Of a stretch of 64,000 nucleotides of DNA, positions 5,279 to 44,717 are shown one piece after another. The stretch covers positions 31,992,001-32,056,000 of the forward strand of contig OX597817.1 in assembly GCA_951406725.2 (NCBI GenBank). The letters run 5' to 3'. Source of the stretch: Octopus vulgaris (taxonomy: Eukaryota). A program made the translations under genes and the position numbers. The notes beneath the pieces were generated by a model. The model saw nothing but the letters and a program-made list of their open reading frames with translations, was not told the origin of the DNA and searched no databases. Every line of letters begins with the position of its first letter. Position 1 is the first letter of the stretch.

Positions 5279-5329
5279 ACAAGAACATATAGTTATTATG
5301 TGCATATTGACAAATACACCGCAGCTTAT

Positions 5330-28027: not shown

Positions 28028-29237
28028 GAGGGTGCGTAAGATATTTGAGGACTGATTTATGTTTATAAAAAAATAGATATATAAGAACACATAATAACTA
28101 TATTTATTTTAAACCTTTTACTAAAATGTTATTCAATAAAGCCACCTTCAGCTTCAACAACTTTCATATGAAATCTAAATCATCTACATGCTCGAATTAA
28201 GGGATCCTGGTTCATTTTGGACATTACCCTGACTATGGCGAGCTTTCATAGATATTTTGGTGTTATGGGCGCGTTCATTGGCCTCTCTCTCAACAACGCT
28301 CCGCATGAGGGATCGAAATGTGGGGAATTAGGAGGCCAAATGTTAGGGGTTATGTGATCATGAAAATTTTCAGCCATCCATTCCTGTGTTACTAGAGCCA
28401 TGTACGATAGTGCATAGTCTTACTGAAATACAAATGGTCTTCCATTACATACACTGTCTATCCAGGGCTTAACAATTATTTCCAGGACCTCAATGTAGGC
28501 GGCATAGTTAACTTTAAGGCATTGTGGAAAGAAGTAAGGCGGTATCACATGTCCTTCATTGATGACAACCCCTAAAACCATGAAAGTTGCAGGAAATTTT
28601 GTATGCATAACACTTCGAACTTCAGAATGGTCTACACATAGCCATCTGTCATTTCTTCTGTTAACTTTTTGATCCTGGTCGAAGTTTTTCTCGCTTGAGA
28701 AAAACCAAATCAAATCTTCTTCTGGATTTTTCAGTCTGTTTAAGGGCTTTTTAGATTTGATGAAGTGATTTTTTTTTTTTTGCCTTTTCTGACAAATGGT
28801 CTTCATATGAGACTTATATCTGATGACTTCGCGGACAACATCTCTGACCGTTCCTTCTGACACATGGAGATCTTTTGCAATTGACATAATGGACTTTCTG
28901 GGATTGTAATCAATGGTCTGTTGAACTTTCTGGATGAATTCAGGTGTTCTGATGATTTCAGAGCGTTTAGAATAGTTTTTATCCCTTGATACTGGTGATA
29001 CGTTTCTAGCTCCTTACAAACTTTGCAGACGAAAGTTCTGGCAACTTCGAAAACTTGAGATATTTCTAAATCGCTTTACTCAGCCTTTATAACCACAATA
29101 ACAGCATACCTCTTCATTTCTTGAGTAAGCTGAGGGTCTGCCATTATTATTTTCTGAAACAAAGATTATACAGAGTTAGCAAAAAAATGCAGCAATGACC
29201 CCAAAAATGTATGTCCTCAAATATCTTATACACCTTG
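28028..29237 (-). mobile_element. Tc1/mariner superfamily DNA transposon (maT/DD37D-like), defective
   Basis: Transposase FFSSEKNFDQDQKVNRRNDRW...MVLGVV..EGHVIPPYFF...FVFQ*D...WPPNSP. TIRs gagggtgcgtaagatatttgaggac (28028-28052) / gtcctcaaatatcttatacaccttg (29213-29237), then TA. Confidence 0.88.
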
Positions 29238-40129: not shown

Positions 40130-40876
40130 TCTGGAAGCGACCTTGGAGAGATTTAAATGCTGTGTTTTGGTGGCTCGTCTTTGTCCAACTATTGTGCTGA
40201 ACGTTTACAGTTGTTGTATTGCATCAATTTCTTATCACATGTTACAATTCGATTCAAAAATTATTCATTTTTCTGGCGAGAAAGTGTCATAATGAAGGCT
40301 TTCAAACATTGATGTTTCTGATTTTTATTGAGTTCATGTGGAACCCACTTATCCAATGTTTTCACTTTACCGATTTGAACTTGGTGAATGAATGTTGTTT
40401 GCTTTCTAACACCAAACGACATCAATAATTCACAGGCACTTTGAGATGGATTTGACTCGATGGTGGCTTTCAGTTCGTTATTATCCAACTTTGTTTCTGG
40501 TCGACCACGTTGCTCATTTGTGAGGTCAACGTTACCAGAACGAAATTTTGCAAACCAATTTGATACTGCCTGATGTGTAATAACATTAGAATGAAATACT
40601 CCATTGATATTCCGAGCTGTCTCTGATGTTGTATTTCCAATAAAGAACTCATGTTTCAAAACTATACGAATTTCCGACTTATCCATCTCTAAATAAAAAT
40701 AACAAAAAACGATTTATAAATACTTTATAAAGCGCAAAATGAGCTAGAATAAAGAAACAGATGTGTCAGTTTTCTAACAAAAAATAAAGATTGTCAAAAT
40801 ATAATAAGGGCGCAAAATGAGCAGCTGTCAAAGTTTACCATATACCTTACTACAAATTTCATACTTGATCACTCTA
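40130..40876 (-). mobile_element. Mariner transposase 5' relic (cecropia/Hsmar1-like)
   Basis: MDKSEIRIVLKHEF...ETARNIN...WFAKFRSGNVDLTNEQRGRPETKLDN...GKVKTLDKWVPHEL (WVPHEL motif). Confidence 0.9.
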
Positions 40877-43602: not shown

Positions 43603-44171
43603 ATTATGTATGAATGAATGTATATGTATGTATTTATAAATATATACGCACACACATTAATATATATATATATATAGCCATATATACACACATACATTTA
43701 TATATATACACAGATATATATATATTTATATAAACATACATACATATGCACATATGTGTGTGTGTATATGTGTCTGCGTATCCGTTTTAAACAAGTTTTT
43801 TTATTTTATAAGGACTATTTTGTAGCCATAAATTAATACTACTAGTTTAGCTGATGTCGCTACTTGTCGGAAAATAAAATGATGGATTCCCAGGCAGCGT
43901 TTATATTTTAACGATGTTTACACCACCAGATTGAATGGTACAGCCCAAGTGTCGAAACCATAATGATTTCTGTTTGGCAGCTGATGATGGGAATAAACCA
44001 ATATTATGCTTGATTGCGAATTTCTTATACCTCAGTTTAGTTCTTCTGAGTTGTCCTTTATTCTTGTCAAGTGGAAAGTATTTCTGGATTCATAATTTGT
44101 AGGAGCTTTTCATCATAGATAATCTTATTAGGCTTAGCTACGGCTTAGATATCGGTTTCTAGATTTGTGAG

Positions 44172-44231
<60 letters not shown>

Positions 44232-44310
44232 AATAAGGTTTAAAGTGAAAAAAGCACAGAAATCATGTTTGTGTAGACAGAGATTATTTATATCCCTTAC
44301 AATATGTACA

Positions 44311-44344
44311 GAGTCGACCGGTTTCGCTTCGCTAATCATGACTC
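44311..44344 (-). ncRNA. 34-nt minimal type-I hammerhead, A3:U8 variant
   Basis: GAGUC-AUGAUUA-GC(GAA)GC-GAAA-CCGG-UC|GACUC with perfect 5-bp stem I. Preceded by a 21-bp-arm hairpin (44367-44387 / 44417-44437) and followed by a tail ending in (TA)n at ~44228. Confidence 0.75.
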
Positions 44345-44717
44345 AATGTTACGAAATCATTATGAGTTTTTGATTTAATCTTGCGTATAAAAGCAAAAAT
44401 TTTCTGTGCCTGCTTCTACGCAAGATTAAATCAAAAATCTATTATGAACCCGGATTCATGTTGTCAGAAGCAAACTACTAACCATATGTATGGTGTCTGT
44501 GCGAGTGCATGTGTGTGCGCGTGTGTCTGTGTCTGTTTCTCTGTCTGTCTAAATGTATGTATGTATGTGTATGTGTGTCTGTCTGTATACACGTAGAAAG
44601 TATCAGTAATATTCTGTACACAAAGAACAGTTGAAAGTATCCATGTTTTATATATACGTATATAAGTCTGATTTACACACACGCACGCACGCACACGTGT
44701 ATACACACACATACACA

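Follow-up and report, generated by a model that had tools for sequence, protein, structure and literature searches.

A minimal hammerhead-like motif with an A3:U8 pair at the decayed 3' end of a Neptune-type Penelope-like element in Octopus vulgaris

The window analysed here, a stretch of 64,000 nucleotides of Octopus vulgaris DNA, contains on its minus strand a 34-nt hammerhead-like motif, in which the core pair 3:8 is A:U. We consider it reasonably probable that the feature is the decayed 3' end of a Neptune-type Penelope-like element (PLE), and that in the once-active element the A3:U8 motif cut RNA weakly after GUC as a dimer. Judged from sequence comparison, such cutting by A3:U8 in the once-active element is likely; the lone copy of the window, which is solitary and has no coding part, is probably inert and most likely a fossil without a role of its own. 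The features of the locus are (in window positions):

44311 to 44344, minus strand: hammerhead-like motif, minimal type I, 34 nt, A3:U8 (based on sequence, family state and covariation across families)
44229 to 44387, minus strand: 5'-truncated 3' end (pLTR region) of a decayed Neptune-type PLE of family A (87% identity to the 3' end of a longer copy, L008)
44175 to 44228, no strand assigned: (TA)27 microsatellite at the 3' end of the element, likely the insertion target (repeat detection)
44385 to 44447, plus strand: short inverted fragment of the same element, head to head with the main copy (alignment to the L008 family sequence)
44367 to 44437, no strand assigned: inverted repeat with perfect 21-bp arms at 44367-44387 and 44417-44437, made of two opposed copies

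The motif can be read as in the initial annotation, that is, on the minus strand from 44344 to 44311, with a perfect stem I and canonical letters at the other core positions. Stem I consists of GAGUC (44344-44340) and GACUC (44315-44311), which form five of five Watson-Crick pairs in a reading of the sequence. The layout is that of a type I hammerhead, with a three-way junction, a stem I closing the motif and A15.1-U16.1. All letters of the type I core, U4, G5, A6, A9, G12, A13, A14, A15.1, U16.1 and H17, are present, position 17 being C (44316). The consensus letters C3 and G8 of CUGANGA are replaced by A3 (44339) and U8 (44334; minus strand, motif numbering), which again constitute a Watson-Crick pair. 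Stem II, closed by G10.1-C11.1, has just 2 bp and a GAA loop (44332-44326), the palindrome ACCGGU (44322-44317, minus strand) would form stem III, and the predicted cut is located between 44316 and 44315. A palindromic stem III is characteristic of the metazoan minimal hammerheads (min-HHRs); a long helix II and an unpaired base at A9/G10.1, which are usual but not universal among these, are absent, as the 2-bp stem II follows directly after A9. No loop I/II contact is evident in the motif. Folding energy alone does not single it out: the z-value of the motif 35-mer is 0.62, and 144 of 200 shuffled sequences fold equally well. A comparison with Rfam gave nothing at the gathering threshold across the whole window and no hammerhead family at E up to 10 over positions 44200-44500. 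This is in agreement with the expectation of the initial annotation that searches of the CUGANGA type overlook the motif; hammerhead surveys and the Rfam models rest on CUGANGA. The sequence supports the proposal that this is a very small natural hammerhead-like motif of type I in which the exchange to A3:U8 preserves the pair.

That this motif is part of a Penelope-like retroelement had been missed. When the 2.8-Gb assembly was searched, the motif stretch turned out to be an interspersed repeat: the best 40 of 85 candidates gave 60 matches, mostly 76-89% identical. Copies of this family A have a common 3' end and differing 5' truncation points, often running into simple repeats; the window itself is AT-rich and contains many microsatellites. 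The window copy spans 44387-44229 only and has no coding sequence left. It differs from the column majority of family A by 6.3%, the median of the copies being 8.4%. Longer copies (L008, L025, L032) carry upstream of the family A 3' end remnants of a frameshifted RT thumb, a CxxxxCxxC linker and a GIY-YIG domain, which end about 220-240 nt before the motif. The motif thus lies in the pLTR region at the 3' end of a PLE, where min-HHRs are located. The CX2-5CxxC linker was used to define the Neptune clade (PMC8557442), and the corresponding layout of RT, linker and C-terminal GIY-YIG is found in the remnants of the three longer copies and in whole frames of sister families; note that the Neptune assignment rests on this domain layout, the trees described below being composed of genome copies and unnamed or generically named homologues. 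A sister-family protein matches Pfam GIY-YIG above the cut-off, and a family B frame finds RVT_1/GIY-YIG proteins with E down to 1e-263. Short family A pieces, seven taken from L008 and one from L025, yielded in Pfam no more than a sub-threshold GIY-YIG match (E 0.057) and an unrelated weak match. Among the best 40 of 1,829 candidates, no intact family A frame was found. The longest frame read that is linked to A3:U8 comprises 635 residues and belongs to family B; the frame of L067, initially assigned to an A3:U8 copy, belongs to family Y, which has U3:A8.

A non-LTR retrozyme consists of head-to-tail tandem units; the locus is a single copy that no tandem repeat covers. The window has 58 frames of at least 110 aa, in which we recognised no host gene; two minus-strand frames, 28420-29013 and 40261-40713, resemble what we take to be remnants of Tc1/mariner transposases. 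Just past the (TA)n tract, positions 43927-44000 contain the end of a very high-copy repeat; in each of the four sequencing runs considered, its summed contig depth exceeds that of the hammerhead about tenfold.

The hairpin next to the motif had been described as perfect. This is correct for the 21-bp arms; the 29-nt spacer which they surround is only partly paired. The folding z-value is -8.2. Both arms are family A sequence in opposite orientations: positions 44376-44447 match the L008 family sequence on the plus strand with 78% identity (E 5e-13), and the sequence indicates an overlap of 3 nt (44385-44387) between this fragment and the main copy. Because the arms are two opposed pieces of one element, the hairpin is to be regarded as a by-product of insertion and not as a partner of the ribozyme; moreover, the inverted piece ends before the hammerhead and therefore cannot supply the second strand of a dimer. 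An inverted, 5'-truncated copy adjoining the element is a described trait of PLEs (PMC8557442), and the fragment would have arisen during the insertion of the element. After overlapping locus records had been merged by hand, an inverted partner was seen at about 10 of roughly 40 places examined; the overlaps measure 24 to 160 nt or more, and the spacings differ. Alternatively, hammerhead and long hairpin might form one locus-specific functional unit, such as a small retrozyme, a miniature inverted-repeat element or a microRNA-like precursor. The strength of the hairpin, its distance of only 22 nt from the motif, and 11 matches of generic microRNA models (Rfam, E up to 10, 44200-44500) would fit this view. 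All of these matches are far below their cut-offs, however, both arms are family sequence, the inverted partners elsewhere vary in length, overlap and spacing, and there is no tandem array at the locus, unlike the canonical 360-bp retrozyme arrays found elsewhere in the genome. The unified reading is therefore largely refuted, and we attach hardly any probability to it.

A chance match in a single copy, which would have undermined the identification of the motif, is ruled out by its occurrence in an interspersed repeat: among 44 distinct family A copies spanning the motif, A3 is present in 42 (the other two having gaps) and U8 in all 44. Contigs from four public runs, labelled as four organisms, span the motif at 85% likeness, and for positions 3 and 8 they list no other letter at the 10% level. 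The individual copies decay neutrally, the motif being preserved no better than the sequence around it (mean majority frequency 0.901 inside and 0.925 outside the motif). All core letters are kept in 21 of the 44 copies, core plus stems in 10. The median copy identity near the motif is 84% in family A, 89% in B, 93% in E, 96% in Z and 99% in Y.

In order to assess the frequency of the various 3:8 pairs, genome-wide matches were counted with patterns restricted to ACCGGU as stem III and to a spacer of 5-20 nt; the reversed pattern served as a control. The A3:U8 pattern proposed in the initial annotation gave 1,763 matches (control 330), U3:A8 gave 11,566 (72), C3:G8 180 (33), and G3:C8 174 (55). 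Contrary to what had been assumed, the A3:U8 exchange is not rare in this genome. It predominates in families A, B, D and E, and each of these possesses its own stem I; the 3' ends of families A and B align over the motif only. An alignment was made of 13 representatives, chosen by hand from the pattern hits by the word ACCGGU; as the rows are related, these stand for few independent events and not for 13. ACCGGU, by which they had been selected, is invariant in 13/13. Stem I is paired in 92% of the cells and shows two-sided changes at five of five pairs, and altogether 94.6% of the cells are paired compared with 21-39% in slid controls. Position 3 pairs with position 8 in all 13 (seven AU, three GC, three UA, no mismatch). 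A pattern spanning the closely related groups E and K gave 212 matches (control 0); the first 100 listed, classified by eye, comprise 53 A:U, 42 G:C, 3 G:U and 2 A:C, i. e. 95 Watson-Crick pairs. With a stricter pattern requiring purine:purine at 3:8, 78 matches were obtained, mostly scattered single-letter variants of known families and with no large family of their own among them. Because related elements of this genome have U-A or G-C at the same place, the 3:8 pairing is likely to have been kept by selection.

Several further observations were made among the pattern matches. Many of the C3:G8 matches are 360-bp tandem, retrozyme-like arrays (L098-L104, L119, L366); one array unit adjoins, on the opposite strand, a 434-residue frame of a distant PLE, as would fit a derivation of retrozymes from PLEs. 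Hammerhead-like motifs of the canonical CUGANGA type, having other palindromic stems III, recur in the flanks of unrelated loci (L048, L156, L163, L355, L359, L360), which suggests further abundant families. Loci L367-L381 and L412-L441 have G3:C8 family-wide, with a stem I of up to 7-9 bp, well-kept copies and Neptune coding remnants, and are close relatives of the A3:U8 family E. At L069:1370-1530 (the same place as L346), two motifs are arranged head to head with an identical stem II; one follows a short internal duplication and has U3:A8, the other lacks the duplication, has A3:U8 and possibly represents an independent origin of A3:U8. A scan of metagenomes with the A3:U8 pattern yielded at least 120 stretches, 80 of which were examined; four of the 80 had a stem I, of only 3-4 bp, in DNA of 44-51% GC, and these matches were treated as chance.

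The history of the exchanges was traced with protein trees of the thumb-to-endonuclease region, for which the rows were projected on one intact protein, with X at breaks; L366 (no usable row) was left out of one tree and L434 (fewer than 70 residues) out of the other. The families form one clade (support 100) versus 16 of 17 outside homologues, and the outside homologue P0001 falls beside family Y. Families with A3:U8 are dispersed within the clade: A groups with G and Y, both U3:A8 (support 99), B and D group with H and Z, which have U3:A8 plus an extra A (support 99), and E groups with J and K, which have G3:C8 (support 100). Counted by hand, four double changes at 3:8 are needed on the best tree, and three if J and K join. 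A root with A3:U8 would be one step cheaper than one with U3:A8, which is a weak indication only. A DNA tree of the E/K copies was set aside, being poorly resolved and containing many non-homologous flanks. The youngest families with intact frames, Y and Z, have frames of 750-870 residues and U3:A8. The young family Y (L125-L166) contains many intact frames, position 17 being C or A depending on the subfamily; some subfamilies lack one base in the 3' strand of stem I, so that an unpaired U precedes position 3. A very young Neptune family (L347-L351) with near-identical 753-residue frames likewise has U3:A8, and its GAAA strand contains an additional A ahead of the palindrome; in L348 the motif follows about 640 nt after the frame end at 5282, in L350, a partial tandem, the motif stands upstream of the frame, and L364 and L365 represent an older relative of this family, again with U3:A8 and the extra A.

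According to the mechanism we propose for the once-active element, two copies of the motif, either in tandem pLTRs of a long transcript or in trans, would pair via ACCGGU; A3:U8 would substitute for C3:G8 in positioning the 2'-OH of residue 8, and the protein of the element would probably assist cutting, as is the case for a lizard PLE (PMC11167929). In agreement with the earlier suggestion that a palindromic stem III acts in a dimer, this stem is computed to be stable only as a dimer: the monomer with stem III closed has +1.9 kcal/mol versus -4.2 kcal/mol for an inactive fold, while the strand-swapped dimer reaches -16.5 kcal/mol, only 0.5 kcal/mol above the best dimer fold (-17.0 kcal/mol). 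Residue 8 is thought to act via its 2'-OH (PMC6155905), and there is therefore room for other base pairs. The initial annotation had drawn on the preserved Watson-Crick pair in proposing a natural hammerhead variant. The pairing as such is confirmed; activity does not follow from pairing alone, since in the pairwise mutagenesis of a type III hammerhead, as described in PMC9901934, only C3G/G8C rescued cutting and the other double mutants in that region remained low. Also speaking against activity are the stem II of only 2 bp without an evident loop I/II contact, the presence of U3:A8 in the two youngest families with intact frames, and the state of family A, whose motif is no better preserved than its flanks and keeps core plus stems in a minority of copies. 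Even when their core is canonical, metazoan minimal hammerheads are described as weak cutters that act solely as multimers (PMC4209133). With respect to transcripts, no RNA run is listed as containing the window stretch. For the 3' end of family B, three runs guessed to be RNA were inspected: contigs of two of them cross the predicted cut site. Contigs that stop there or a single base further on are seen in two of the RNA runs but equally in the one DNA run inspected, and so are no sign of cleavage or of expression.

It is conceivable, though in our opinion unlikely, that the fold was kept as a structural element, for instance for binding of RT or endonuclease, for RNA dimerisation or for the start of reverse transcription, that cutting was negligible, and that any Watson-Crick pair at 3:8 suffices. 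Four different 3:8 pairs exist in the genome, and two of them performed poorly in the mutagenesis cited above; furthermore, the hammerhead of the lizard PLE cut only with the protein of the element, was dispensable for insertion in vitro, and had no RNA-seq reads ending at its site (PMC11167929). Against this interpretation speak the invariance of G5, A6, A9, G12, A13, A14, A15.1 and U16.1 and the lack of G at position 17 in the 13 representatives, where it has to be considered that the search patterns fix most of these letters. In addition, the 3:8 pair belongs to the active conformation (PMC3884650), and natural U3:A8 hammerheads are known (PMC3088659). Still less credible to us is a scenario in which A3:U8 is a crippled state, made accidentally by AT-biased mutation, which hitch-hiked in a few PLE lineages after the ribozyme had ceased to matter. 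The genome is indeed AT-rich, copy identity marks the A3:U8 families (84-93%) as older than those U3:A8 families that have intact frames (96-99%), and some PLE clades thrive without canonical hammerheads (PMC8557442). Yet A3:U8 has survived in families whose proteins are now about 55-60% identical and whose stems I have been rewritten by compensatory changes, G3:C8 opposes the AT bias, and mismatched 3:8 states are rare. We therefore retain weak cutting by A3:U8 as a dimer in the once-active element as the preferred reading. A bolder version of it, to which we give somewhat less than even credence, would have the 3:8 pair freely interchangeable in the Neptune lineage, with A3:U8 being ancestral and working and flipping repeatedly to U3:A8 and G3:C8, and with all of these motifs cutting as dimers or assisted by protein.

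If this interchangeability were true, standard searches would miss thousands of non-CUGANGA ribozymes per genome, and a natural series would be at hand for a catalytic-core pair crossing two-step valleys. In the literature searched, U3:A8 was the sole natural covariant found for 3:8, and the laboratory data described there suggest that A:U works poorly at this place. As A3:U8 was kept over deep protein divergence and occurs together with U3:A8 and G3:C8, the families provide matched natural scaffolds, which could be used to decide whether PLE hammerheads are kept for cutting or for shape. The literature searched contained no natural A3:U8 hammerhead, although Lünse 2017 and Przybilski and Hammann 2007 may already cover it; entries found for C3A, G8U and AUGAUUA/AUGAAUA were unrelated by title.

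Among known systems, the min-HHRs of metazoan PLEs (Cervera and De la Peña 2014, PMC4209133) resemble the window motif in being of type I, with a short stem I, G10.1-C11.1, a palindromic stem III and a location at the PLE 3' end; they, too, are described as mostly solitary truncated copies, with opposite-strand pairs and a predicted action as dimers. The window motif differs from them in A3:U8, in its 2-bp stem II in place of a long helix II, and in lacking the extra nucleotide at A9/G10.1. The authors describe a U3-A8 covariant in Schistosoma; the text of their Fig. S3 lists 56 motifs, of which not one starts with AUGA. Hammerheads with a natural U3-A8 pair (Perreault et al. 2011, PMC3088659) show a similar covariation at 3:8 and a stem II of down to 2 bp; in the available text of that study the change is from C3-G8 to U3-A8 only, whereas A3:U8 and G3:C8 are family-wide in the Octopus vulgaris lineage. 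The variants of Lünse, Weinberg and Breaker (2017), as presented in PMC6765202, are likewise small and PLE-associated and have a short palindromic stem III and dimer cleavage. The Anolis Poseidon element PAc (PMC11167929) also has a hammerhead in its pLTR, and a C3G/G8C swap partly restores its cutting; in contrast to the window motif, PAc has a canonical core and belongs to another clade, and the need for protein has been demonstrated. With the Neptune PLEs (Craig et al. 2021, PMC8557442), the elements described here share RT, the CX2-5CxxC linker, the C-terminal GIY-YIG and a hammerhead near the 3' end, as well as 5' truncation, an adjacent inverted copy and microsatellite targets. Those Neptune elements encode RT plus GIY-YIG, unlike the window copy, which has no coding sequence, and the available text describes them with canonical hammerheads, whereas the families in our trees have A3:U8, U3:A8 or G3:C8. 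PLE hammerheads, their action as dimers and inverted partners are thus already known; what appears to be new, as far as the protein tree indicates, is that A3:U8, U3:A8 and G3:C8 are linked within a single Neptune lineage.
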